Shown here piece after piece: positions 2,655 through 52,968 of a DNA stretch of 64,000 nucleotides. The position numbers and the translations under genes are program-made. The notes under the pieces are model-generated. The model ran no database searches and was not told the DNA's origin. It worked only from the letters and a program-made list of their open reading frames with translations. This DNA is from a virus. Taxonomy: Duplodnaviria; Heunggongvirae; Uroviricota; Caudoviricetes. The number at the start of each line of letters is the position of its first letter. Position 1 is the stretch's first letter. The DNA lies in the IMG/VR virus record IMGVR_UViG_3300022173_000112, positions 2,916 to 66,915 of that record. The stretch is one strand, 5' to 3'.

Positions 2655-3211
2655 TGAACAAGCAACAACTCGAAGCCAAGCTGCAACTCCTTGAAACGGA
2701 GATGATCTTGGCCAAAGGTGGCACTCAGAAGGAAGTCCGCGAGAAGTTCGGCGACACGTTGGGCCAAAAGCTCTACGGCATCACCCAACTGAACAAGCGA
2801 TTTCCGAACGTCAAGCTGGTTCACCGCATGACGGAACTGGACCCAACCGATCGGGATTGGATCAAATTCAAAGATATTTCAGGGAGTCATCTCCCGAATC
2901 TTTTGATGCGTTCCAACTCGGACGAATTGAAGGCTCAGAATCAGAAACGTCGGGCGTTGAGCCAAGAAGAATACTCCCCTCTCACGGAAGAGAAGTTTCA
3001 GGAGTTCATCACGAGTTGCACCGTCAAGGTGAACTGTGCCAAAATCATGAACAGGTCGAACATGGAACACGCTGCTTCGACCTATCCCATCGGAATCGTC
3101 CGCGACGTATTCAACGCCATCTTGTCGAACAACATGGACGTTCTGAAAAAGTACGCGGAACGTGCCGCCGTAATCGACGGCGTGGTCGAAGCGATTATGA
3201 AAACTTACTAA
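2655..3211 (+). CDS. Hypothetical early protein (185 aa)
   Basis: ATG after strong RBS following R6. ORF track lists 2555..3211 in the same frame. Confidence 0.55.
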
Positions 3212-3216
3212 ACGGG

Positions 3217-3256
3217 GGCTACCCAGCGTCAAACTGGGTAGACGGAAGCGCCGTCC
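3217..3256 (+). promoter_or_regulatory. Early-region hairpin+leader element R7
   Basis: ctacccag-cgtcaaa-ctgggtag hairpin, then ACGGAAGCGCCGTCC, RBS aaggag, ATG at 3278. Confidence 0.5.
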
Positions 3257-6642: not shown

Positions 6643-7089
6643 CTACTTCAAATGTTCAGGCGTCACGGTTACAGAATTGTATTTCTTCAATCCGTTCACA
6701 CAACTCACGTACAATTGCAACGCCCGTCTGACTACCTCCGATTCCTTTACTCCCTGCTCAATGGCCATCCGAACCAGTGCATCGTAGGTCGCTTCGGAAA
6801 AGCCGAACTTAACACGAATCAGGTACGCTTCCCGATTGAAACGCTTAGCCGCCTGCACCCTGGCGTCAATCATCTGGCCACGTGTGATCGTGTTCAAGTC
6901 TTCCCACGTAATCCCTACCTCCCGAAGAGCATGAAGGGAATCGACGCTCATATCAACGAGTCGCGGGTTGTCAGGAATCAAGGCCATGATTCTCTTTATC
7001 AGTTCTTCCACGTTCACTCCTAAAAATCTTGACTGTGTTCCTAAAAAAATTCGGGAACGGCTGACTCGCCTCCGGCGGAACGCAGTCAA
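6643..7089 (-). CDS. Hypothetical protein, possible ribbon-helix-helix DNA-binding C-terminus
   Basis: 148 aa. C-terminal segment ...SEVVRRALQLYV... resembles Arc/MetJ/CopG-type RHH. Confidence 0.4.
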   Translation of the reverse strand: MTAFRRRRVSRSRIFLGTQSRFLGVNVEELIKRIMALIPDNPRLVDMSVDSLHALREVGITWEDLNTITRGQMIDARVQAAKRFNREAYLIRVKFGFSEATYDALVRMAIEQGVKESEVVRRALQLYVSCVNGLKKYNSVTVTPEHLK

Positions 7090-7334
7090 GGCAGCGAGTC
7101 CAACTTGGGTGAGACCTTAATCAGTTCGTGTGTATCTTTGACTCTTTGCAACCTTCGACACTCGTCAATGTGTAATCGAATGTCATTGTCCACGTGTCCC
7201 CATGCTTGCATTGGTGGGAATCTCTTGCCGCAGAAGTGGCACCGTGGAATCCACATCTTTTCCTCCGGTGCAGAAGCACACCCACCAAGGAAGGCCACAA
7301 TGAGGGCAACGCAAATCAGGAATCGTGTTGTCAT
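7086..7334 (-). CDS. Putative lipoprotein
   Basis: N-terminal hydrophobic segment ending in a LGGC lipobox. Confidence 0.45.
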   Translation of the reverse strand: MTTRFLICVALIVAFLGGCASAPEEKMWIPRCHFCGKRFPPMQAWGHVDNDIRLHIDECRRLQRVKDTHELIKVSPKLDSLP

Positions 7335-35736: not shown

Positions 35737-37188
35737 TTACTCTTCGAATGAGTATTCACGCGACCGAATGAAGTCGATGATTGCCTCGCTCCATCCACTG
35801 ATGTGGACGAACTTGTTGTACCCGATTCCATTCTCATTGCAACTGATGTTGATGAGGTAGTTGGAATCACCGAAGGCGTTCGCCTGCGACGGATCGAGCT
35901 TGCTGCCAGGGGTCTGGCAATCTTGCTCGTCCGTGATGACGATGACGCGGTCAGCCGTCCGCTCTTCCTGATACACATGGTCCATGACCTGTTTCAGGAA
36001 GATACCACCCTGGCCGATTTTGTGGCGAAGTTGTAACTCGCTGAAGATTCGCGACAACTCGAAACCGCGTCGAGCCGGAACTTGCATCGTCGCGTGGCGA
36101 CATGCTGTATCGTTACCGGCCGTCGCATAGATGACCGGGTTCTCGGCGATCTCTTTGACGAGAATCGCCAGGGCACCGGCAGCATCCAACCGCGACAGGT
36201 CGCTCTTGGCCGAGACTTTGCCCTGAGTCATGGACCCTGACGAGTCCACAATCAGAACCGTCTTGCCGGGGAGCTTCGGCATCTTCTCCAAGCAGCGTAG
36301 CATCATCTCTTCGATCATGTTCTGCCAGGCCGGAACAGCACGGTAGGCCGCGATGAATCGGAATGGCAACACACGATCGAGGTTGACACGCTTGGCGTAA
36401 TCAACAACGAGTTCCTTGGCCACGCCGCTCTGTTCCATATTGCGAAGATTCCGCAGGAACGCGAGGGCACCGAGCTTGTCCTGCTCCATCAGACGCGTGA
36501 ATGTCTCGCACTTGTCGGCTCCCGCAGAAAGCTCAACTTCCCAAGTATCGGGAGTTTTGAGAGTGCCTTCCGCCAGCTTGTGGTAGAGGGAATCGGTGTG
36601 TCGAAGCAAGGACTTGGCATGTCCATCTTTATAGGTGCGGTGTTTGATAACCGCAGGACCCACGTCAGCCGGCTTGGGGTGACAGAGGAACATGGCGTCC
36701 CGGAGCTTGACGGCCCCGTCACGATTGTACTTAGCCAAGGCGTACTCATTGAAGTTCCCGAAGGCTTTCGCCAGTCCTTTCTTGACTTGGGCGGAAATCG
36801 GGCACTTGCCATCTTTCCAATAAATGGCAAGGAATTCCGCCAACTCGTCAGCACGCTGAATGATTTCCGGGAGCAGGTCTTTGACCAGACCCTTGTGGCT
36901 ATCCAGCCGAGCCATTTCACGAGCGATGAGCAGCGGCACATGGCGCAGCTTCTGATTCGTGCGGGCGTCGATGGCCATGTTCGCCACCTTCTGCGGGTCC
37001 ACCTGTTTGATCAGGTTACAAATCCGCTTCGCGATCGTCTCGCCGGATTCATAGAAGGTGTCTTCCCACAACATGCACGCCATCACGGATCGCCGAAGTT
37101 GTTCTTCGGGATTCACGTTGCTGGCGATTGCTCCGCCGTGGGTGCGCTTGACAAGCTTCGGAACCTTGGTCTTCACATTCGTCTTCAT
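35737..37188 (-). CDS. rsr: Ro60/Rsr-like RNA-binding protein (TROVE domain plus C-terminal vWA with MIDAS)
   Basis: N-terminal HGGAIASNV...LWEDTFYESGE...RHVPLLIAREMAR resembles the TROVE consensus. C-terminal LIVDSSGSM (MIDAS DxSxS), GQGGI and VIVITDEQD parallel the Ro60 vWA segment. Confidence 0.55.
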   Translation of the reverse strand: MKTNVKTKVPKLVKRTHGGAIASNVNPEEQLRRSVMACMLWEDTFYESGETIAKRICNLIKQVDPQKVANMAIDARTNQKLRHVPLLIAREMARLDSHKGLVKDLLPEIIQRADELAEFLAIYWKDGKCPISAQVKKGLAKAFGNFNEYALAKYNRDGAVKLRDAMFLCHPKPADVGPAVIKHRTYKDGHAKSLLRHTDSLYHKLAEGTLKTPDTWEVELSAGADKCETFTRLMEQDKLGALAFLRNLRNMEQSGVAKELVVDYAKRVNLDRVLPFRFIAAYRAVPAWQNMIEEMMLRCLEKMPKLPGKTVLIVDSSGSMTQGKVSAKSDLSRLDAAGALAILVKEIAENPVIYATAGNDTACRHATMQVPARRGFELSRIFSELQLRHKIGQGGIFLKQVMDHVYQEERTADRVIVITDEQDCQTPGSKLDPSQANAFGDSNYLINISCNENGIGYNKFVHISGWSEAIIDFIRSREYSFEE

Positions 37189-37935: not shown

Positions 37936-37961
37936 GACATAGACACCCTCCAAGAGAGGAA

Positions 37962-38035
37962 GGTGGCCGACGGGGGTCGAACCCGCAACCTCCGGAATCA
38001 CAATCCGGTGCTCTGCCAATTGAGCTACGACCAAC
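37962..38035 (-). tRNA. tRNA-His (anticodon GUG) with an extra 5' G opposite the discriminator C
   Basis: GCTC-AATTGGCA-GAGC D-arm, CCGGA-TTGTGAT-TCCGG anticodon arm, GCGGG-TTCGACC-CCCGT T-arm. The 8-nt 5' acceptor strand is typical of tRNA-His. Confidence 0.6.
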
Positions 38036-38045
38036 ATGAATTTGC

Positions 38046-38119
38046 GGGAACAAGCGGAACGGCTGCTGCCCTTTCGGGCGATCAAACCATCTTTGAAGTA
38101 ACCGTTTCCTAACGCCACG
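38046..38119 (-). repeat. Structured repeat unit 1 (GAAGTAACCG-N-CGCCAC family); immediately 5' of tRNA-His on the minus strand
   Basis: Core gaagtaaccgtttcctaacgccac (38095-38118). The variable helix GGAAACGG pairs with CCGTTCC 30 nt away. Almost identical to unit 6. Confidence 0.4.
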
Positions 38120-38132
38120 CAAACAAGGTTGT

Positions 38133-38220
38133 GGGGAACAATCGCTGTAGTTAGCCGGTATCGAGCCGGCAACCCTTTCGGGCCATCAAACCAAGAAGTA
38201 GCTACAACTATCACCACCAC
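38133..38220 (-). repeat. Degenerate copy of the structured repeat (unit 1b)
   Basis: ggggaacaatcg...ccctttcgggccatcaaacca-gaagtagctacaactatcaccac parallels unit 1. Confidence 0.3.
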
Positions 38221-38349
38221 AAAAGGGTGACCCCGGCGGACTTGCACCGCATTACCGCCTCGCGGCGGCGTGTTACCTATAGCATCCCACATTATAGGAT
38301 GCAGCCGGTGATTACACTACCTGGGTCGTAAAAGTATTAGAGGGATAAT

Positions 38350-38456
38350 AATCGGCAACAGGGGTTGGTCTTTTGCTCTGCCAGTTGAGCTACGTCCCGA
38401 AGAACGATGGGATTCGAACCCATAACCCAAAGAAGTAACTGTTACCTACGCCACTC
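38350..38456 (-). ncRNA. Composite tRNA-like module: repeat unit 2, then a T-arm, then a UUCG hairpin, then a tRNA 5' half (acceptor plus D-arm)
   Basis: Minus strand: GAGTGGCGTAGGTAACAGTTACTTC.. ATGGG-TTCGAAT-CCCAT, then CGTTC-TTCG-GGACG, then GTAGCTCAACTGGCAGAGC. No anticodon or T-arm follows the 5' half. Confidence 0.35.
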
Positions 38457-38689
38457 TAATTCGGAGCCGATGGCGGGGTTTACGAAAGACTTATCGACTT
38501 ACCCGCGAAACAGGATCGTATCATGCTTTTGGTCTCGATTCCTCATCCAAAGCGGACGAGGACCACTAAGCATTGCCACCACGCTAAGGCCCAGTGCACT
38601 GGGATGTCCGCGTTCATCGGCGATATTTTGGTCCAGAGCCTTCACGGTAACACACCGTGGCCTGCCCAGCAAAAGCACTCTGGACCAAA

Positions 38690-38760
38690 TCGGGATCGGG
38701 GATTAAAAGTCAGGGCGGCACTTTTAACAGAAGTAACCCATGACAATCGCCACCGAAAGT
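38690..38760 (-). repeat. Structured repeat unit 3
   Basis: Core 38730-38753. Inner helix GTCA(T)GGG/CCCTGAC crossing with TTAAAAG/CTTTTAA. Ends CTTTCGGTGGCG ... AATCCCCGAT. Confidence 0.4.
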
Positions 38761-38763
38761 TTG

Positions 38764-39024
38764 TTACTTGGGCTTCCACTCTTCGGGAATCTTTTCAACA
38801 TCGTTGAAGATGTTGCCCATCCGAATCTTCCAGTCTTCACCTTCCGGGCGACCGGCATGGTGATACATGGTCTCTCCCACCTGACGCCAGACTCCTTGCT
38901 GGGATTCCGGCGGCACGTAGGCCGCTCGTTTCATCAGTTGTTCCAAGTCGTTGGCCAACGCGACTTCCGTCGGCGGCAGAACTTCTTGAATGATGAACTT
39001 CACCAATCGATCCAGGTCTCGCAT
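38764..39024 (-). CDS. Hypothetical protein (86 aa)
   Basis: ORF track. Repeat unit 3 lies just past its stop. Confidence 0.45.
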   Translation of the reverse strand: MRDLDRLVKFIIQEVLPPTEVALANDLEQLMKRAAYVPPESQQGVWRQVGETMYHHAGRPEGEDWKIRMGNIFNDVEKIPEEWKPK

Positions 39025-39040
39025 GATTCTTTCCTTAAAA

Positions 39041-39247
39041 TTAACGATTCATTTCTTCCGCGAACTTCTTCCAGGCGTTGCATGTACGGACGCACCGATC
39101 ATGAACGGCTCTTGCTGCTTCAAAGGCTGTTGGCCAGAATCGTTCACCGTCAGGCCACATACCGTAGCTGGGACCATCAGCCAAAATATCAGCTAGAATC
39201 TCTTCATAGCTGGTTGGCTCATGAACAATGACGGTCAGCATCACCAA
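39041..39247 (-). CDS. Hypothetical protein (68 aa)
   Basis: ORF track. Confidence 0.4.
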   Translation of the reverse strand: MVMLTVIVHEPTSYEEILADILADGPSYGMWPDGERFWPTAFEAARAVHDRCVRTCNAWKKFAEEMNR

Positions 39248-39924
39248 CCCTCCATCGGAAATTCAAGGTACACTTGAACCTGACGACGGATTTCATTGGT
39301 CATGGTCTTCGTCCGGTCAGTGTTCGTACTGATTCGGCCGAACCAACGCCAACCATTCTTCACGGCCTTGACGCCGGTATGGAAGGCTTGCCAGTCGAAG
39401 GCAACCAAGTGGTTGTCAAGGCAGTCCTGCACTTGAACCTTACCAGCTTTGATTAACGCTTCGACTTCTTCGTGCCACTGACGGTAGACAAGCTGACCCG
39501 GTGGCACATCTTTCATCTCACATTTGCCGAACACGAACTTGGTCGGACAAATGACGCCATTCACCAGACCCATGATGTGCCGCGACTTGTATCGCGGGTT
39601 CTCATAATCTGGTTGGCCAGCAGTCAGAAAGTGCTGACCCGGAGGAATCACGGCTCGCGGCACATCGTCATGGTGCCAACCAGGGATGGCGGGATACCAT
39701 CCGGGCATCAACATGTGACACCGCGAATCGAAGACACCACCATGATAGTCCTCAGGCAATGCCTGGAGGAAGCTCTTCGTAATCGGTCCGCCATGTTCCC
39801 AAGCGTAGGAGACGGACGAGTTGAAGAACATCGGTTCGTTCTTGATGGCGTCCTGACTGAACTGATTCGGCAGAGCGAAAGGACGAACAATGAATGCTTG
39901 CGAGTCGAACACTTTCATTTTCAA
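39241..39924 (-). CDS. Hypothetical protein (227 aa)
   Basis: ORF track. His/Trp-rich. No motif recognised. Confidence 0.5.
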   Translation of the reverse strand: MKMKVFDSQAFIVRPFALPNQFSQDAIKNEPMFFNSSVSYAWEHGGPITKSFLQALPEDYHGGVFDSRCHMLMPGWYPAIPGWHHDDVPRAVIPPGQHFLTAGQPDYENPRYKSRHIMGLVNGVICPTKFVFGKCEMKDVPPGQLVYRQWHEEVEALIKAGKVQVQDCLDNHLVAFDWQAFHTGVKAVKNGWRWFGRISTNTDRTKTMTNEIRRQVQVYLEFPMEGW

Positions 39925-39974
39925 TTTCCTTAATTAAAACGGGGATTAACTGAACACGGTGGTAATCCCTGAGG

Positions 39975-40050
39975 GGCGGTTTACAGCCGCTCTCTCGGGA
40001 CTTCTCCGGACATGGTGGGGAAGTAACCGTATTCAAACGCCACCGCAAAA
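39975..40050 (-). repeat. Structured repeat unit 4
   Basis: Core 40020-40043. Here ACTTCC pairs with GGAGAAGT downstream. Confidence 0.35.
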
Positions 40051-40192
40051 AGATAACTTGGGAGTTCAGAAGGCACGGGCCATCACCTTCTACCTTAATC
40101 CTTTCTGAGGGATTAACAGGAATACCACGCTCCTGCCTACTGCCAGATTCTTGCCTCTGGCTTGCATTCTGGGGTCCGTTCAAGTTATTAGG

Positions 40193-40262
40193 TATCGGGG
40201 ATTAAAAGCTTAGGGTTGGCACTTTTAACAGAAGTATCCCTTAGCATACGCCACCGAAAAGC
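40193..40262 (-). repeat. Structured repeat unit 5
   Basis: Core 40231-40253. Inner helix GCTAAGGG/CCCTAAGC (8 bp) crossing TTAAAAG/CTTTTAA. Closing helix TCGG(T)GG/CCCCGA. Confidence 0.4.
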
Positions 40263-40357
40263 ACACGCCAGTATCCAGCATTTATTGAATGCCCCGTCTG
40301 GCCACGGTGCATCGGACTCAAACTTCCCTATGCTAGACTGTAGGGAATCTTAAAACT

Positions 40358-40432
40358 CGGGAACAAGCGGAACGGCTATTGCCATTTAAGGCATCCACTT
40401 TTCAATTGAAGTAACCGTTTCCTAACGCCACG
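40358..40432 (-). repeat. Structured repeat unit 6 (near-duplicate of unit 1)
   Basis: gggaacaagcggaacggctattgcc...gaagtaaccgtttcctaacgccac. Core 40408-40431. Confidence 0.4.
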
Positions 40433-40503
40433 AGAGTGTTGGGTTTTGCTAACCATAAGTGACCACACCAACAGGCCACCCTTCGATTCCTCCAAAAACG
40501 GGT

Positions 40504-40752
40504 TTAGAGTTGGTCCGCGAGGTAGAGCAGAGCAGCCTTGAAAGCCGCTTTGGTTTTTGCAGGGGACGCGGGGACTTCTTCCATCTTGGCCGTCATCTCG
40601 TCGAAAAGACGATTCTGTTCGGCTTCCATTTCTTCCTGCGTCGAGTTCGGTTTCGATTCGTACAACCGAAAAAACGTGACAATCGCACTGAGCGTACGAA
40701 GTGTCGTAGCCATCTTCATGGACAGAGTCAGCAGCAAAAGTTCCTTGAGCAT
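40504..40752 (-). CDS. Hypothetical helical protein (82 aa from MLKELL)
   Basis: Longer ORF 40504..40830. Only the C-terminal part looks protein-like. Confidence 0.4.
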   Translation of the reverse strand: MLKELLLLTLSMKMATTLRTLSAIVTFFRLYESKPNSTQEEMEAEQNRLFDEMTAKMEEVPASPAKTKAAFKAALLYLADQL

Positions 40753-40844
40753 CGAACGATTCCTTAAAAGAGTGTGGAAGAAACAGGGGCGAGTAACCAG
40801 CGTCAGAACCCCGATGACCCAATTACCCACCCCTGTGATTCAAA

Positions 40845-40915
40845 AATCGGGGATTGTTCGCTACGGCTTTTCGTGCAAAGGTAGAAGTAACCGTAGCAAT
40901 CGCCACCGAAAGAGC
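40845..40915 (-). repeat. Structured repeat unit 7
   Basis: Core 40884-40906. Inner helix GCTACGG/CCGTAGC (7 bp) encloses TTACTTC. Confidence 0.4.
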
Positions 40916-41069
40916 ATGTACTCACGTTATCTGTTATTCTCTTCAATCTTCGGCATCGTGCCTACTTTCGAGGCAGACCACGCCGTGAGTACGACCCATG
41001 TAGGTTACGTCCACTTAAGGACGATTGCTACCAGGGCGGGCCAGATGGGGACGGAACCCTACTCCAGCG

Positions 41070-41294
41070 TCAGGCCGGCTTTGCAGCCAGCTTATCCAGA
41101 TACTTGGCCTTGTTCACGATGCCTCGACGAATCGAGGCGATCACAGCGTTGGCACGTTTGACATGCCGCTCCGTGTACGTCTTGCCGATGAACTTCTCGG
41201 CAATCGTGCCCGCATCGAGCAGGGCACCGTCTTTGTCTCGACCTAACTTGCTGACATTGGCTTTCGTGATGTTAGTCATGGTTAGTGACTCCAA
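41070..41294 (-). CDS. Small basic protein (74 aa), possibly DNA-binding
   Basis: ORF track. Lys/Arg-rich. Confidence 0.4.
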   Translation of the reverse strand: MESLTMTNITKANVSKLGRDKDGALLDAGTIAEKFIGKTYTERHVKRANAVIASIRRGIVNKAKYLDKLAAKPA

Positions 41295-41312
41295 TGAGAA
41301 GAGGGAACGGGT

Positions 41313-41591
41313 TTAGGACGCCAGGAGATACACGCCGCGAGGTTTGTCGAAGACAATCGTGGCGATGACCACTGACTCTTCGACCTCGACTTCTTTCGGT
41401 TTGCCTTCGACGATTTCGGTCTTCTTGACCATCTGCATTTCCTTCACTTCTTGGCGGTCGCCAAAGAGCTTCTTGGCATTGGCCCGAATCTTCGTGGGCA
41501 ATGCCCCGCGACCCGGCCAGAGTTCACGCAGCGACACTTGACCGCCATTCCGTTTGCGGCATCGGTCAATGATCTTCTGAACTTCGCTCAT
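41313..41591 (-). CDS. Hypothetical protein (92 aa)
   Basis: ORF track. Repeat unit 8 lies in its 5' leader. Confidence 0.45.
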   Translation of the reverse strand: MSEVQKIIDRCRKRNGGQVSLRELWPGRGALPTKIRANAKKLFGDRQEVKEMQMVKKTEIVEGKPKEVEVEESVVIATIVFDKPRGVYLLAS

Positions 41592-41609
41592 GATGCACCT
41601 TTTCCTTAG

Positions 41610-41686
41610 GGTTGAAAATCGGGGAACAAACGATTACAGCGTCACATCACCAAAAGAAGTAGCCGTAATCAAACGCCACCGAAAGC
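41610..41686 (-). repeat. Structured repeat unit 8 (between tRNA-Trp and the gene at 41591)
   Basis: Core 41656-41679. Then ...TTCCCCGAT, RBS, ATG. Confidence 0.4.
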
Positions 41687-41758
41687 ACGACCGGGTGGGT
41701 TCGAACCACCAACCTACGGATTTGGAATCCGTCGCTCTGCCAGTTGAGCTACTAGCCG
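41686..41758 (-). tRNA. tRNA-Trp (anticodon CCA), acceptor stem imperfect
   Basis: GCTC-AACTGGCA-GAGC, ACGGA-TTCCAAA-TCCGT, GGTGG-TTCGAAC-CCACC. Several acceptor mismatches as drawn. Confidence 0.5.
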
Positions 41759-41825
41759 TGTTGTGTCCGGGAATAAGTCGAATCAGTATAGCATCCTACC
41801 ATTAGACGACAAGCCCCGAAGGACT

Positions 41826-41890
41826 CGGTGGGATTCGAACCCACATCTCTTCTTTGACATAGAAGTAACCGATTCTAAACGCCACGGAAC
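41826..41890 (-). ncRNA. Repeat unit 9 fused to a T-arm (tRNA-like module with GUC in a 7-nt loop)
   Basis: Minus strand: GTGGCGTTTAGAATCGGTTA-CTTCT-ATGTCAA-AGAAG-AGAT-GTGGG-TTCGAAT-CCCAC. No matching acceptor stem. Confidence 0.35.
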
Positions 41891-41957
41891 TAAGAACCAG
41901 GGATCAGTGAAACCGGGTTGCGCTCTGCCATGCCTGCGCTCGCACCCCTTGCGGAGT

Positions 41958-42015
41958 GAGTTAGGATTCGAACCTAAAATCACCTTGATGAAGTATCCGA
42001 TCTCGTCGCCACTGG
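41958..42015 (-). ncRNA. Repeat unit 10 fused to a T-arm-like hairpin
   Basis: TTAGG-TTCGAAT-CCTAA adjacent to core 41990-42012. Confidence 0.3.
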
Positions 42016-42019
42016 TAAG

Positions 42020-42092
42020 TTGTGTCGGGGATTATACGGTAACGGGGTTACAACGCCTAATGAAGTACCCGCTACCTTACGCCACCGAACGT
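42020..42092 (-). repeat. Structured repeat unit 11
   Basis: Core gaagtacccgctaccttacgccac 42062-42085. Confidence 0.35.
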
Positions 42093-42095
42093 CAC

Positions 42096-43879: not shown

Positions 43880-44953
43880 TTACTTGGCCAGGAGCAGTTT
43901 CGTACCACGCGGCAAGATGCGATTCACGCTCTTGCTCTGGATGAAGATGTCGTAGTTACCGTGGTTGCCCGGCACGATCTTAGCGTGTTGGTCACGCGGC
44001 AGACCGATCAGGTCGCGGGCTTCGGGGCCACCGTAAATCTTCTTGGTGCGGCCGGTGTTCTTCTCTTGGATGAGAACCTCTTTTGAGGGCTGAACCTTTT
44101 CCGGCTTCACCAGTTGATAGAAGGCCGTACCGGGGATGTAATCCTTGCCGGTCTGCTCTTCAACGAAACCGCGGATGATCGATTCGTTGGCGACCGTGAA
44201 CAGACGGAAGCTCGCCGCCAAATCGTCGAGTTGCTTCTTGACGTTGACCTTCGAGAGGTCCGGCGTCGCCTTGAAGAAACCCTTCGTCTGAGTGACACCG
44301 CGGGCACGGTTGTCCATGTAGTTGGACACCGCGTTCGAGGTCTCGTCGCTCATCTTCCGCGTGCCGATCTCGGTCAGTTCCCATTCGTTGACGTTGTCGA
44401 TCGCGATTCCGAACTGACGACAGAAGACTTCGCGGCGACCGACGGGAAGCTGGAACGCGAACGTCCAGTTGCCCTTGTCTTCGCGGTTGACGATCATCCG
44501 TTTCAGGTCCGAAGCCGTGGTGAAGACCGAGTTGAGTTCTTCACCGTCCGTAATCGGATGGATCAGGAAGCTCGTGTTCTCGTCGGTCGGCACGTTGTCG
44601 AACAACGCGATGGCCGAAGCGACGGCATCGAACAGGGCCGTCCCACCGCCGGGGTTGTAGTTCGTGTGATCCAGGTCGGGAATCATGTTCACGTTGGCGT
44701 GCTTGAAGAGCGGTTCATTCACGCGGTCGTTGAACGTAATCAGGGACACGTAGACATCCTGATTCTTGAGAGCCGACTTGCGTTGCAGCGTCGCCTTGAT
44801 GTTGTTGAACGTCTGCCGAACCGAGGCGGTCAGTCGGCTGTGACCAATCGAACTGGACGAATCCAGCACGATGGCGATGTAGGTCTTCTGACGGGGCTTG
44901 GTGACGCGGCGGCGAGTGGTGGGAGTGCGAGCCATGATTTTGGTGTCCTTCAT
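43880..44953 (-). CDS. von Willebrand factor A (vWA) domain protein
   Basis: MIDAS VLDSSSSIG near the N-terminus. 357 aa. Confidence 0.6.
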   Translation of the reverse strand: MKDTKIMARTPTTRRRVTKPRQKTYIAIVLDSSSSIGHSRLTASVRQTFNNIKATLQRKSALKNQDVYVSLITFNDRVNEPLFKHANVNMIPDLDHTNYNPGGGTALFDAVASAIALFDNVPTDENTSFLIHPITDGEELNSVFTTASDLKRMIVNREDKGNWTFAFQLPVGRREVFCRQFGIAIDNVNEWELTEIGTRKMSDETSNAVSNYMDNRARGVTQTKGFFKATPDLSKVNVKKQLDDLAASFRLFTVANESIIRGFVEEQTGKDYIPGTAFYQLVKPEKVQPSKEVLIQEKNTGRTKKIYGGPEARDLIGLPRDQHAKIVPGNHGNYDIFIQSKSVNRILPRGTKLLLAK

Positions 44954-51511: not shown

Positions 51512-51775
51512 TCACTTCTTGATCAGAGCCAGGATGGCATTGATCACGGTTTGCAAATCCAACTTCTGACCCGAGAACAGACTCAGGACGAGCGGCAGGA
51601 GAACAGCCAGAATCGTCACAAGTCCAACGCCAGCAGCCTGTGCCTGCTTGACGGCGTCACCGAGCTTTGTCTCGGCGTCGCGACCATACTGGTACGCAAC
51701 GCTCTTCAAAAGCATTTTCAGTGTTCCCTGTTGATTCGCACCAACGACACCTGCAAGGTGTTGAGCTTCGATCAT
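51512..51775 (-). CDS. Small membrane protein (87 aa)
   Basis: C-terminal TM helix. Confidence 0.4.
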   Translation of the reverse strand: MIEAQHLAGVVGANQQGTLKMLLKSVAYQYGRDAETKLGDAVKQAQAAGVGLVTILAVLLPLVLSLFSGQKLDLQTVINAILALIKK

Positions 51776-52968
51776 TTATCCTTCTCCAAGTAAGTTGCCC
51801 CAACGCACTTGAGACACAAGCGTCCCAAGTGAATATCCGTTCGTTCGATGAGCGGCTTGACCACACAACCCTCACGATGGTGTTGTGCAATCATGGACTG
51901 CCCATCGCTCAAGTTCACAACCAGGTCGAAGTTGTAATCGTGAATACCGAGGAACGGTACCCACGGAACATTCGGTGCCGCATCGCGAGCTTCTTGAGCA
52001 TTCAGCCAACGGCCTTCGTCAAGAATGTCGAACACAGCAATCGAGACTGGCTTGTCTTGAGTGTGGCCGTACTTCAAGGTCTGTACGTTGCCGTAGACTT
52101 CACCGTACAAAATCTTGCCCGGATTATCACGGCACCACTTTTCAATTTCCGGTTCATGGCTCAACGCCGTCCACCACATGTTCCGCGACTTTGTCGGGGA
52201 ATGTAGGCGATCGTAAATCTGTTGACAGCGTTCTTCATCGGGGATGTTCGTGTCTTTGTTCAAGACCCGCTCACGCAACCAATCCATCGTGATATGGTCG
52301 TAAGACGGGAACTCCTTCTTCCATTCAGTTCGAGACCCACAGTGCATCGCACCGTCTTGATAGACGTACCGTGCGTTAGCTCCGTGAATCTTCTCGGTGA
52401 TCCAAACCTTCTCGCCAGGAATCAGCAAGTTGTGATACTTGCGGAAGGCATCGAGATCATACTTCGGACTGTTCAAGCTAGGAGCCTTGGCGACTTCGCC
52501 ACCAAGTACCAAGCCGTTGGAAGCTCGTTGCTCACCGGGCAGCGGCGGTTCGTAGTGAGTGACACCCAACTGTGCCGCAACGTCTTGACCCACGACGCTA
52601 CCTTCCGGTGCCGGAATCATCAGACCGAACGAGACGACACCACGCAGCTTCATGGCCTTGACGCGGTGCGTACCATCAGCCTTGGCTTTCGGCAAGAGGA
52701 AGTCAAACTCTTTCCGGTTTGTGTCAACCACCGAATCAGGCGGAAGATACGCACCAAGAGCGACACCCTGCCAGTCTTGCGTTCGGACGATACAGGTGTA
52801 TCCTCCGAAGACCCGAACGATACTGAGCGAATCAGCGTTCGGGTGCTTTTCCATCACGATCGGAACAACTTCAACTTGATGCGTGCTGTTTGACATTGTA
52901 TGCTCGGTAGTTAAAGGGTAGTGCTTACCAGCGTCTCGGTTCCATCTCAACAAGACGTTGTAATTCAT
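51772..52968 (-). CDS. ATP-dependent RNA ligase (Rnl2-like) with an N-terminal OB/tRNA-binding-like region
   Basis: Nucleotidyltransferase motif I EKIHGANA (KxHG, as in T4 Rnl2 EKIHGTN) and EGCVVKP (motif IV/V). Confidence 0.55.
   Translation of the reverse strand: MNYNVLLRWNRDAGKHYPLTTEHTMSNSTHQVEVVPIVMEKHPNADSLSIVRVFGGYTCIVRTQDWQGVALGAYLPPDSVVDTNRKEFDFLLPKAKADGTHRVKAMKLRGVVSFGLMIPAPEGSVVGQDVAAQLGVTHYEPPLPGEQRASNGLVLGGEVAKAPSLNSPKYDLDAFRKYHNLLIPGEKVWITEKIHGANARYVYQDGAMHCGSRTEWKKEFPSYDHITMDWLRERVLNKDTNIPDEERCQQIYDRLHSPTKSRNMWWTALSHEPEIEKWCRDNPGKILYGEVYGNVQTLKYGHTQDKPVSIAVFDILDEGRWLNAQEARDAAPNVPWVPFLGIHDYNFDLVVNLSDGQSMIAQHHREGCVVKPLIERTDIHLGRLCLKCVGATYLEKDK

Follow-up and report, generated by a model that had tools for sequence, protein, structure and literature searches.

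A probable array of twelve Y-RNA-like non-coding RNAs upstream of a phage Ro60/Rsr gene

On the minus strand of the window (the whole stretch of phage DNA analysed, 64 kb), a gene at 35737..37188 encodes a 483-aa TROVE/Ro60 (Rsr-like) RNA-binding protein, which matched Pfam TROVE (53.8 bits, cutoff 23), PHROG 850 'RNA-binding protein' (E 1e-38) and, over residues 15-480, the Ro60 of Thermus phage phiLo (PDB 9L5Y and 9KOP, E 3.7e-28). Upstream of this gene, at 0.85-4.9 kb and on the same strand, twelve repeat units (Y1 to Y12) span 38038-42093, with the last unit 0.85 kb away; this is also the strand of the surrounding genes and tRNAs. A regex scan of the window found 12 copies of GTGG[C/T]G-N(11-14)-TACTTC, all on the minus strand within 38095-42085, and no copy in the rest of the 64 kb, which bears out the twelve-copy family described in the earlier note. 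Two tRNA genes identified by ARAGORN abut units with spacers of 2-7 nt: tRNA-Trp(CCA) (41685..41759, minus strand, Rfam tRNA 49.7 bits) is separated by 6 nt from the outer helix of Y3, which precedes it, and by 2 nt from that of Y4, which follows it, and tRNA-His(GUG) (37961..38035, minus strand, Rfam tRNA 57 bits) lies directly past Y12, 7 nt from its outer helix. No sigma-70-like promoters or terminators were prominent in the array region.

Each of the 12 units, when folded alone, gave one common architecture. The outer (lower) helix, nnnG[U]GG/CCCnnn, contains three G-C pairs and a bulged U, all of them invariant, and is followed by an asymmetric internal loop (5' YGWW(N), 3' GNUURUU), an upper variable helix (P2) of 7-9 bp with free sequence, and an apical loop that opens with an invariant UACUUC and continues into a variable insert. 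In 12/12 units, the variable sequence that separates the conserved blocks forms a helix with another variable segment, and since this partner is located 11-73 nt downstream but always about 7 nt ahead of a conserved (U)CCC, the pairs are positionally equivalent. The insert of nine units is short or contains one or two hairpins, with neither a T arm nor a D arm, while Y2, Y3 and Y10 carry a tRNA-like domain in which a closed acceptor-like hairpin stands between a T arm and a D arm.

All units are on the minus strand, and were scored with a covariance model built from the units themselves (R2, with a training set that left out Y2, Y3, Y10 and Y11). The short modules, with the bulged lower helix (P1), internal loop and UACUUC loop, are Y1 (42025..42088, 66.2 bits, lone-fold z = -2.58, P2 helix GGUAGCGGG/CCCGUUACC), Y4 (41619..41682, 76.6 bits, z = -3.05), Y5 (40847..40909, 49.0 bits, z = -2.93), Y7 (40195..40257, 60.4 bits, repeat family D2) and its paralogue Y9 (86% identical; 38696..38756, 50.4 bits, z = -2.59). 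The medium modules are Y6 (40356..40434, 52.9 bits, repeat family D11), which has one extra insert hairpin, Y8 (39939..40046, 52.2 bits, z = -3.27), with two extra hairpins and the ACUUC paired to GAAGU, Y11 (38130..38220, 35.9 bits), with two extra hairpins and GUGGUG replacing GUGGCG, and Y12 (38043..38121, 51.8 bits), with Y6 and Y12 being paralogues that share the P2 helix GGAAACGG/CCGUUCC; the folds of Y6, Y11 and Y12 agree with their assignment. In the long module Y2 (41897..42015, 23.8 bits, E 1e-5), the fold shows a closed acceptor-like and a D-arm-like hairpin besides the T arm UAGGUUCGAAUCCUA. The fold of the long module Y3 (41766..41888, 45.6 bits) has a T arm and the same two kinds of hairpin, the closed acceptor-like one with 7 bp and a UUCG loop, plus a hairpin that resembles an anticodon arm (CUUCU-AUGUCAA-AGAAG). 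The YrlA-type Y10 (38339..38457, 41.6 bits) combines the T arm AUGGGUUCGAAUCCCAU, the closed hairpin CGUUC-UUCG-GGACG, a UA and the D arm GCUCAACUGGCAGAGC.

Both the outer and the variable helix covary, in the window as well as across 136 distinct relatives. In the 12 window units, 90.4% of cells form standard pairs and 10/15 pairs show two-sided changes, with the caveat that these counts come from model-fitted alignments and so lean towards the structure. The covariation score of 0.629 compares with 0.163 ± 0.032 for shuffled alignments (0/500 shuffles reach 0.629) and ≤0.103 when partners were slid by 1-3 columns. The 136 distinct relatives were 94.8% paired, with a score of 0.831 versus 0.193 shuffled and ≤0.127 in the slid controls, and covariation was also strong in a set of 57 distinct sequences. 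The outer helix uses 8 different triplets among the 12 units, each complementary to its partner. The earlier note had taken compensatory changes in an internal helix as the mark of a functional structured RNA, as opposed to a coding region or a simple promoter, and the covariation in the window and in the relatives supports this. The core had been read on the plus strand, but the 114 G.U and U.G cells versus 22 A.C and C.A cells show that it is the minus strand that folds. The alternative of a DNA cruciform is disfavoured, because only one of the strands tolerates G.U pairs, and only on the gene strand are the sequences of the T arm and D arm correct. A DNA-level signal of another kind, either a two-block promoter (GTGGCG, TACTTC) recognised by a sigma factor or RNA polymerase of the phage, or a hairpin recombination site, would fit two conserved intergenic blocks with 11-14 variable bases between them, some just upstream of ORFs. 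It is nevertheless extremely improbable, as nothing in a promoter would require its spacer to covary with sequence 11-73 nt downstream, or the flanking triplets to covary with a distal CCCnnn, the outer helices of neighbouring units are only 5-8 nt apart, too close for separate transcription units, and the one-strand G.U tolerance points to RNA.

Other details of the interpretation first proposed, which was partly supported overall, fared less well. The pairing GCTAAGGG/CCCTAAGC given for unit 5 in the numbering of that note contains one A.A mismatch. The TTAAAAG/CTTTTAA pseudoknot is not supported: it was present only in two paralogues that are 86% identical, with a zero-length linker, and crossing helices were not enriched family-wide (4.63 vs 4.57 ± 0.09). 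The GG of the (C)GGTTAC sequence, which had been likened to a tRNA D-loop, is base-paired inside the variable helix and is therefore not a D-loop GG, with the genuine D-arm-like and T-arm-like elements located elsewhere, within three units. The outer helix and the neighbouring Ro60/Rsr gene had both gone unseen, and with them the Y-RNA-like identity of the units.

A scan with 4227 Rfam families (E <= 5) gave matches for Y10 (YrlA, 40.9 bits, E 1.6e-6) and Y3 (tRNA, 27.6 bits, threshold 29) only, with no match at this cut-off for the other ten units. Small ribozymes adjoin tRNAs in some phages, and the compact conserved folds with invariant unpaired nucleotides next to tRNAs could suggest a self-cleaving ribozyme cutting a polycistronic transcript, or an unrecognised cis-regulatory RNA such as a riboswitch. 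We consider this very improbable, since no Rfam family other than YrlA and tRNA was matched, twelve tandem copies with variable inserts are unlike riboswitches, and the architecture is that of Y RNAs, in which an internal loop separates two stems and a loop caps the second.

Animal Y RNAs (Rfam RF00019) have this overall plan too. As in the window units, their lower stem carries a bulge of one nucleotide and is followed by an internal loop, an upper stem and a loop rich in pyrimidines, but there is no detectable sequence similarity and the units gave no match to this Rfam family. The bulge is a C in animal Y RNAs (GGU[C]CGA) versus a U in the window (G[U]GG). Animal Ro60 recognises a bulged helix (PMC12135203), and it is the single-nucleotide bulge of the lower stem that it reads. 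Among bacterial and phage RNAs, a close counterpart is YrlA (Rfam RF02553), Y-RNA-like RNAs described in Salmonella, Mycobacterium and 22 phages (Chen et al. 2014, PMC4201824). None of the 12 units reached the YrlA gathering score of 69 (best 40.9 for Y10, with 20.5 bits for Y3), while relatives of the modules scored up to 51.4 bits. YrlA and the window units are both encoded on the strand of rsr, no more than a few kb from it, and share a stem of the 5′ and 3′ ends, an internal loop, a GNCG-type motif near the 5′ end, and a conserved YUAY after the stem, which is paralleled by UUAC in the window. The window motif GGCG-WW-N0-1-G likewise parallels the proposed Rsr site GNCGAAN0-1G, but the AA is replaced by A/U in 12/12 units. 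Further differences from YrlA are that the lower helix keeps both strands and its invariant bulged U, that only Y2, Y3 and Y10 contain the tRNA-like domain, and that there are twelve copies versus two to a few in the systems described.

The nine short and medium units, with their pyrimidine-rich UACUUCU loop, fit the description of the short hairpin Y RNAs (S. Typhimurium YrlB, M. smegmatis YrlB and D. radiodurans Yrn2). UUAC..CUUCU and UGGCGACUUC occur in the sequences of the probes used for M. smegmatis YrlA and YrlB (PMC4201824), the latter within the YrlB probe, and the sequence comparison with YrlB covered this probe. The YrlB RNAs known in 2014 were species-specific and lacked a family model, whereas the short form in the window belongs to a conserved family that a covariance model detects across many phage lineages. 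The Ro60 of Thermus phage phiLo, a sequence homologue of the window Rsr, binds two Yrl RNAs whose genes lie upstream of its own (PMC12135203), and Yrl1 and Yrl2 were shown to bind both Ro60 and host PNPase (PMC12135203; PDB 9L5Y). Compared by description, these two RNAs and the twelve window units are alike in being phage-encoded upstream of a Ro60 gene with a stem-internal loop-stem plan, but the phiLo RNAs were chosen by a CGAA internal-loop motif that is absent from the window units.

The canonical T-arm and D-arm sequences of Y2, Y3 and Y10 are those of tRNA (Rfam RF00005), and Y3 also retains an anticodon-like loop of 7 nt on a 5-bp stem; the parts are however permuted, with the T arm followed by the closed acceptor hairpin and then the D arm, a free CCA end is absent, and Y3 scores below the tRNA threshold. 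The units might be functionless debris of decayed tRNA genes in a tRNA-rich phage region, as may be suggested by the near-threshold score of Y3, the ARAGORN tRNA calls in 5/150 family members, the RefSeq annotation of one CcrColossus module as tRNA-Gln, and the proposed derivation of YrlA from dimeric tRNA transcripts (preprint 10.1101/312249). Such an origin without function is highly unlikely, given that two helices are maintained by compensatory change in 136 distinct sequences with invariant loop bases, unlike in pseudogenes, that 9/12 units have neither arm, and that a loop closes the acceptor end in the three units that have them.

The modules are linked to Rsr genes. Model R2 gave 178 matches (E <= 0.05) in 58 Rsr-containing sources (57 loci and the window), all 178 on the Rsr strand. 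Among the best 150 of these, 139 were upstream of the Rsr gene (median gap 199 nt), 11 were downstream within 478 nt, and none was inside the gene. A pattern scan of viral contigs, made without selection for Rsr, found 36 module loci, and in 18 of them the module was followed, after 30-580 nt and on its own strand, by an Rsr homologue. Modules were also found beside the Ro60 genes of the cultured phages CcrColossus (8), Xanthomonas phage Tenjo (5), crAss001 (3) and Microcystis phage Mvi-JY20 (2), while Ralstonia phage RsoM2USA, which has the closest cultured Rsr homologue, gave no module match.

Within the array, the 3′ ends of Y4 and Y8 precede the ribosome-binding sites of the ORF at 41313-41591 and of a 225-aa ORF by about 10 and 8 nt, respectively. 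In total, three units stand 8-10 nt ahead of such sites, and Y5 ends about 90 nt ahead of the next ORF's start. A role in cis on the mRNA is therefore possible. It is unlikely, though, that the modules are solely cis-acting processing or stability elements of a long transcript, independent of Rsr, such as end-protecting hairpins or nuclease entry sites that shape tRNA and mRNA products. This is compatible with the position of Y4, Y8 and Y5, the abutting tRNA-Trp and tRNA-His, the lack of standout promoters or terminators, and four loci with true module matches where at least the next 2.6 kb downstream contain no Rsr gene. It leaves unexplained the near-exclusive same-strand placement beside Rsr in very different phage groups, the invariant unpaired nucleotides and the YrlA-type tRNA-like domains, and the array of the closest relative (locus L001) is compact, without ORFs to serve.

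We thus propose, with a probability of roughly 80%, that the region is an array of twelve Y-RNA-like non-coding RNAs belonging to the adjacent phage Ro60/Rsr gene. The units have a modular RNA structure, and the array is best read as an expanded, interrupted set of Y-RNA-like RNAs, which probably bind Rsr. The system is of a known kind, with the twelve copies and the stripped-down form of most units being unusual. The array, flanking tRNAs and small ORFs may be transcribed as long precursors, from which RNase P at the tRNA 5′ ends and other host nucleases would release RNAs of about 65-125 nt; the link of the units to RNase P or RNase Z that was suggested earlier is plausible, and in D. radiodurans a single precursor has been documented to yield Y RNAs together with a tRNA. 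The lower helix, bulge and internal loop would form the binding site for the Rsr ring, and the distal part, either a pyrimidine-rich loop or a tRNA-like domain, may tether or gate an effector such as host PNPase, in the manner of the RYPER complex and of Thermus phage phiLo. If so, the phage could redirect host decay or quality control of structured RNA.

A further structured RNA element may be located just upstream of Y5 (40921..40995, minus strand), which we suggest tentatively, as the evidence comes from two sequences only. The element did not match the module covariance model, but is 84% identical over 70 nt to positions 7062-7129 of L001, inside the array of that locus, and a two-sequence fold showed compensatory changes in its closing stem (CUCACG/CGUGAG).

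A search of the whole 64 kb window with the regular expression GTGG[C/T]G-N-TACTTC found 12 copies. Every copy is on the minus strand within 38095-42085, the remainder of the window has none, and a repeat finder recovered the identical set of 12 units (Y1-Y12, 38038-42093, minus strand). Because this strand also carries every credible ORF and each of the window's eight tRNA genes, the units were read on it; their numbers follow transcription, Y1 being at 42.09 kb and Y12 at 38.04 kb. The 5′ part of every unit has three variable bases, G, U, GG, (C/U)G and 2-4 A/U-rich bases, followed by a variable stretch of 7-9 nt, (U)UACUUC and an insert of 11-73 nt, while the 3′ part consists of the complement of the variable stretch, approximately 7 U-rich bases (usually GNUURUU), CCC and the complement of the first triplet. 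This triplet occurs in eight kinds among the 12 units (UCG, CCA, UCC, CUC, GCG, AGA, GUG and UGC), each complemented after the CCC, and core lengths are 61-123 nt.

When folded separately with RNAfold, all 12 units adopted the same plan of an outer helix (P1, nnnG[U]GG/CCCnnn) with a bulged U, an internal loop and an inner variable helix (P2, 7-9 bp). Compared to dinucleotide shuffles, their fold z-scores ranged from −0.2 to −3.3; fold stability on its own is unremarkable, and the case therefore rests on the common architecture and covariation. As MAFFT misplaced the 3′ strand of units carrying inserts, a covariance model (R1) was built from the five shortest units with the structure set by hand, and the units were realigned with Infernal. 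With filters off, R1 found units only inside the array. A second model (R2), built from 64 matches in the window and related loci, recovered 12/12 units (E 6e-21 to 1e-5), including Y2, Y3, Y10 and Y11 from outside its training set, with a sole other match in the window of 17 bits (E 0.013).

Covariation was scored in three alignments which were fitted to the model, so that the scores are biased towards the structure: in the window-only alignment (A5, 12 distinct sequences) 90.4% of cells were paired and 10/15 pairs changed on both sides, with a score of 0.629 versus 0.163 ± 0.032 for shuffled alignments (0/500 reaching 0.629) and 0.103 for the best slid control, while all 15 pairs changed on both sides in both A3 (57 distinct sequences, 95.9% paired, score 0.738, shuffled 0.163, best slid control 0.107) and A4 (136 distinct sequences, 94.8% paired, score 0.831, shuffled 0.193, best slid control 0.127). 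Both the slid controls and the folds obtained independently for single sequences speak against this covariation being an artefact. Paired cells included 114 G.U or U.G versus 22 A.C or C.A combinations, hence the folded molecule corresponds to the gene strand, pointing to RNA. A two-block promoter, the reading considered first, was rejected because of the covariation and the outer helix; sites of the σ70 type (−35/−10, spacer 16-18) numbered 2 in 8.5 kb versus 5.9 expected by chance, neither of them at a unit.

The earlier note had proposed the inner covarying helix, which these results bear out for P2 in all 12 units, and had overlooked P1. Its suggestion that a second helix crosses the first as a pseudoknot did not hold: this helix was confined to Y7 and Y9, which are duplicates of each other, the linker crossing a 7-8 bp helix would have to be of zero length, and across the family the crossing helix was no commoner than when 3′ junctions were swapped between units. 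The likeness to a tRNA D-loop also fell away, since the GG of CGGUUAC is paired within P2. The proposed pairing of ACUUC with GAAGU is real in Y8, as is one of CUUCU with AGAAG in Y3; in both units the pairing adds a hairpin where the insert begins.

The gene 0.85 kb beyond Y12 on the same strand (Rsr, 35737-37188, minus strand) encodes a 483-aa TROVE-domain protein, with a Pfam TROVE match of 53.8 bits (cutoff 23), a weak match to the Ro60-type vWA domain, a match to PHROG 850 ('RNA-binding protein', E 1e-38), and a nearly full-length match to the solved Ro60 of Thermus phage phiLo (9KOP, 9L5Y; E 3.7e-28). The window also encodes a family A DNA polymerase, class II ribonucleotide reductase, RNA ligase, DNA ligase, RecD-like helicase and ParB, and is derived from a large uncultured phage.

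Relatives of Rsr were fetched as 46 loci from viral contigs and 11 from bacterial genome contigs. In the viral loci R1 had 77 matches at E ≤ 1, of which 76 were on the Rsr strand; at E ≤ 0.05 R2 had 178 matches across the 57 loci and the window, every one on the Rsr strand. Among the best 150 of these 178 matches, 139 were upstream of Rsr (median gap 199 nt) and 11 downstream (≤478 nt), with none inside the gene. Because the 57 loci had been selected for Rsr, viral contigs were also scanned with the bare sequence pattern, giving 36 loci, half of which (18/36) were followed on the same strand, at a distance of 30-580 nt, by an Rsr homologue. Of the other 18, eight were unmatched by R2 and are probably chance matches, six were true matches followed by <1.5 kb of DNA, too short to judge Rsr, and four (L061, L074, L085 and L092) were true matches (single modules, 59-69 bits) without Rsr for at least 2.6 kb. 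In these four, either Rsr is elsewhere in the phage, or the module works with a host Rsr or without Rsr. The association of the module with Rsr is strong, not absolute. One of these four modules is flanked by genes for a large terminase and a tail-sheath-like protein.

Modules were present but unannotated in cultured phages, with eight in the 1.2 kb upstream of the Ro60 gene of Caulobacter phage CcrColossus, five in Xanthomonas phage Tenjo, three directly after the TROVE gene of crAss001, and two in Microcystis phage Mvi-JY20; Ralstonia phage RsoM2USA, which has the closest cultured Rsr homologue, gave no module match. Unannotated tandem arrays of modules occur in phages from crAss-like viruses to jumbo Caulobacter phages, with a few mis-called as tRNAs, and such regions are now left blank in annotation or filled with spurious ORFs and tRNA calls. 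The RefSeq 'tRNA-Gln' D866_gt024 (CcrColossus NC_019406.1, 109217-109284, equivalent to 3164-3231 of the fetched locus L058) is the 5′ part of a 171-nt module (GGUGGCG..UUACUUC..T arm) rather than a tRNA gene. ARAGORN called 5 of the 150 best family matches as tRNAs, each starting at the 5′ end of the module.

Other identities weighed by eye were ribozymes of the HDV-like and hammerhead types, tRNA genes that are circularly permuted or split, and a tRNA containing a group I intron. No ribozyme or intron was matched in the first Rfam scan, which indicated YrlA. Rfam covers only this tRNA-like type of bacterial and phage Y RNA. None of the units reached the YrlA (RF02553) gathering score of 69 bits in the Rfam scan, the best being Y10 (40.9 bits, E 1.6e-6); Y3 scored 20.5 bits in a small search, the ten other units had no YrlA match at E ≤ 5, and relatives of the units scored up to 51.4 bits. 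YrlA is defined by a permuted tRNA-like domain of T arm, closed acceptor-like stem-loop and D arm (PMC4201824). A canonical T arm, closed acceptor-like hairpin and D arm were present in that order in Y2, Y3 and Y10, and absent from the other nine units.

Other features of Y RNAs were compared across the whole set. Taking as Y RNA shape a long end-paired stem, a bulged helix and an internal loop at a size of about 70-150 nt, folding and covariation placed paired 5′ and 3′ ends, a bulged helix and an internal loop in 12/12 units. The location used for YrlA by Chen et al. 2014 is approximately 4 kb or less from the Ro60/Rsr gene on the same strand, and the units lie 0.85-4.9 kb upstream of Rsr on its strand, only Y1-Y3 being slightly >4 kb away. 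The conserved YUAY that follows the 5′ stem strand of YrlA is mirrored by UUAC, with UAC invariant in the 12 units and the base before it U or C in nine units and G or A in three; across the family its bases are conserved at 100% (U), 86% (A) and 100% (C). The proposed Rsr site GNCGAAN0-1G was found in none of the 12 units, which have GGCG followed by UA, UU, AU or AC, never AA, and then N0-1 G. The family consensus at this position, GG(C/U)G-W-W-(N)-G, mirrors that site and looks like a related, degenerate version of it. For comparison, the published M. smegmatis probes, when reverse-complemented, read UUACCACUUCU for YrlA and UGGCGACUUC for YrlB.

The units were not tRNAs by the available models: Y3 scored 27.6 bits with three acceptor pairs mismatched, below the tRNA (RF00005) threshold of 29 bits, and ARAGORN called no unit a tRNA at default settings and gave only unreliable calls at relaxed settings. 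Y3 (41766-41888, minus strand) does have a complete anticodon-arm-like hairpin ahead of the T arm (5-bp stem; 7-nt loop AUGUCAA in which position 33 is U and position 37 a purine), and thus reads as a near-whole tRNA plus the 5′ half of a second tRNA. This layout agrees with a published proposal (preprint 10.1101/312249) that derives YrlA from dimeric tRNA transcripts.

The units form a modular covarying RNA fold of defined strand which is genomically coupled to Rsr, and we consider it likely (probability roughly 0.8) that they are Y RNAs. The family of structured RNAs to which they belong is of the Y RNA kind and not categorically new; the window carries a divergent, many-copy form of it that is missed by current family libraries and genome annotations. 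For animal Ro60 the recognised feature is a bulged helix; the phiLo protein binds two RNAs whose genes are upstream of its own and complexes with host PNPase (PMC12135203). In D. radiodurans, Y RNAs and a tRNA are cut from a single precursor. The nine short or medium units fit published accounts of short hairpin Y RNAs, and a shared precursor fits the tRNA-Trp and tRNA-His abutting the units. We infer that the array would be co-transcribed with tRNAs and ORFs, with RNase P and other nucleases releasing the RNAs; Rsr would bind the module of P1, bulge and internal loop, and the distal module may tether or gate an effector. The roles of Ro60 and Y RNAs in bacteria and phages are still largely open, with only a handful of such Y RNAs studied. 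This locus and its >170 relatives provide a testable, covariation-backed consensus for the binding module (bulged-U helix, invariant loop bases and UACUUC loop), and with twelve modules of differing distal parts, this one phage lends itself naturally to asking whether different Y RNAs recruit different partners.

The 3′ ends of Y4 and Y8 are 8-10 nt before ribosome-binding sites, and that of Y5 is approximately 90 nt before the next ORF start, which leaves room for a role in cis. It is conceivable, though improbable, that the nine minimal modules are not free Y RNAs and instead serve as landing pads for Rsr within polycistronic transcripts, in pre-tRNA spacers and in mRNA leaders 8-10 nt from ribosome-binding sites, where Rsr with tethered PNPase or another nuclease would control the neighbouring tRNAs and inserted accessory genes at the level of maturation, stability or translation. 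If true, this would amount to cis regulation based on Ro60, a kind of system so far undescribed.

Sampled loci contained 1-8 modules, usually head to tail right beside the gene, compared to 12 over 4 kb in the window, where Y6/Y12 and Y7/Y9 are recent duplicates. In the closest relative (L001, Rsr 69% identical) the flanking VWA gene, the array and Rsr are also present, and the six ORFs interrupting the window's array have no counterpart; these ORFs therefore look like lineage-specific insertions. Searches of Pfam, PHROGs, NCBIfam and PDB gave no function for these six ORFs. A 225-aa ORF in the array (39241-39918, minus strand) had phrog_1843, of unknown function, as its sole match (E 1e-72), with none in Pfam, NCBIfam or PDB; it has approximately 65% DNA identity to hypothetical genes in T4-like phages of Escherichia, Shigella and Aeromonas.

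The spacers of the array, all read on the minus strand, also contained possible structures. Directly upstream of Y5, 70 nt at 40921-40995 are 84% identical to 7062-7129 inside the L001 array, with a compensatory C-G to U-A change in the closing stem and no match to the module model, and this may be a different small RNA. The 228-nt Y9-Y10 spacer (38463-38690) forms long stable hairpins (−92 kcal/mol, z about −3.4), with no convincing ORF and no relatives among the fetched loci. The Y10-Y11 spacer (38226-38333) had no Rfam or tRNA call and nothing similar among the fetched loci, and folds as a four-way junction (z about −3.2 versus mononucleotide shuffles) with a GACCC/GGGUC closing stem and a hairpin resembling a T arm, GCGGUGCAAGUCCGC.

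The VWA-domain protein gene (43880-44953, minus strand) is 1.8 kb upstream of the array and syntenic in L001, and the RNA ligase gene (Pfam RNA_ligase, 51772-52968, minus strand) is 10 kb upstream; either could form an RNA repair or RNA handling set with Rsr. Large tRNA clusters often adjoin Rsr loci in viral contigs, with ARAGORN detecting 22 tRNAs in the fetched flanks of L008, 26 in those of L013 and L046 and 7 in those of L001, compared to 8 in this window.
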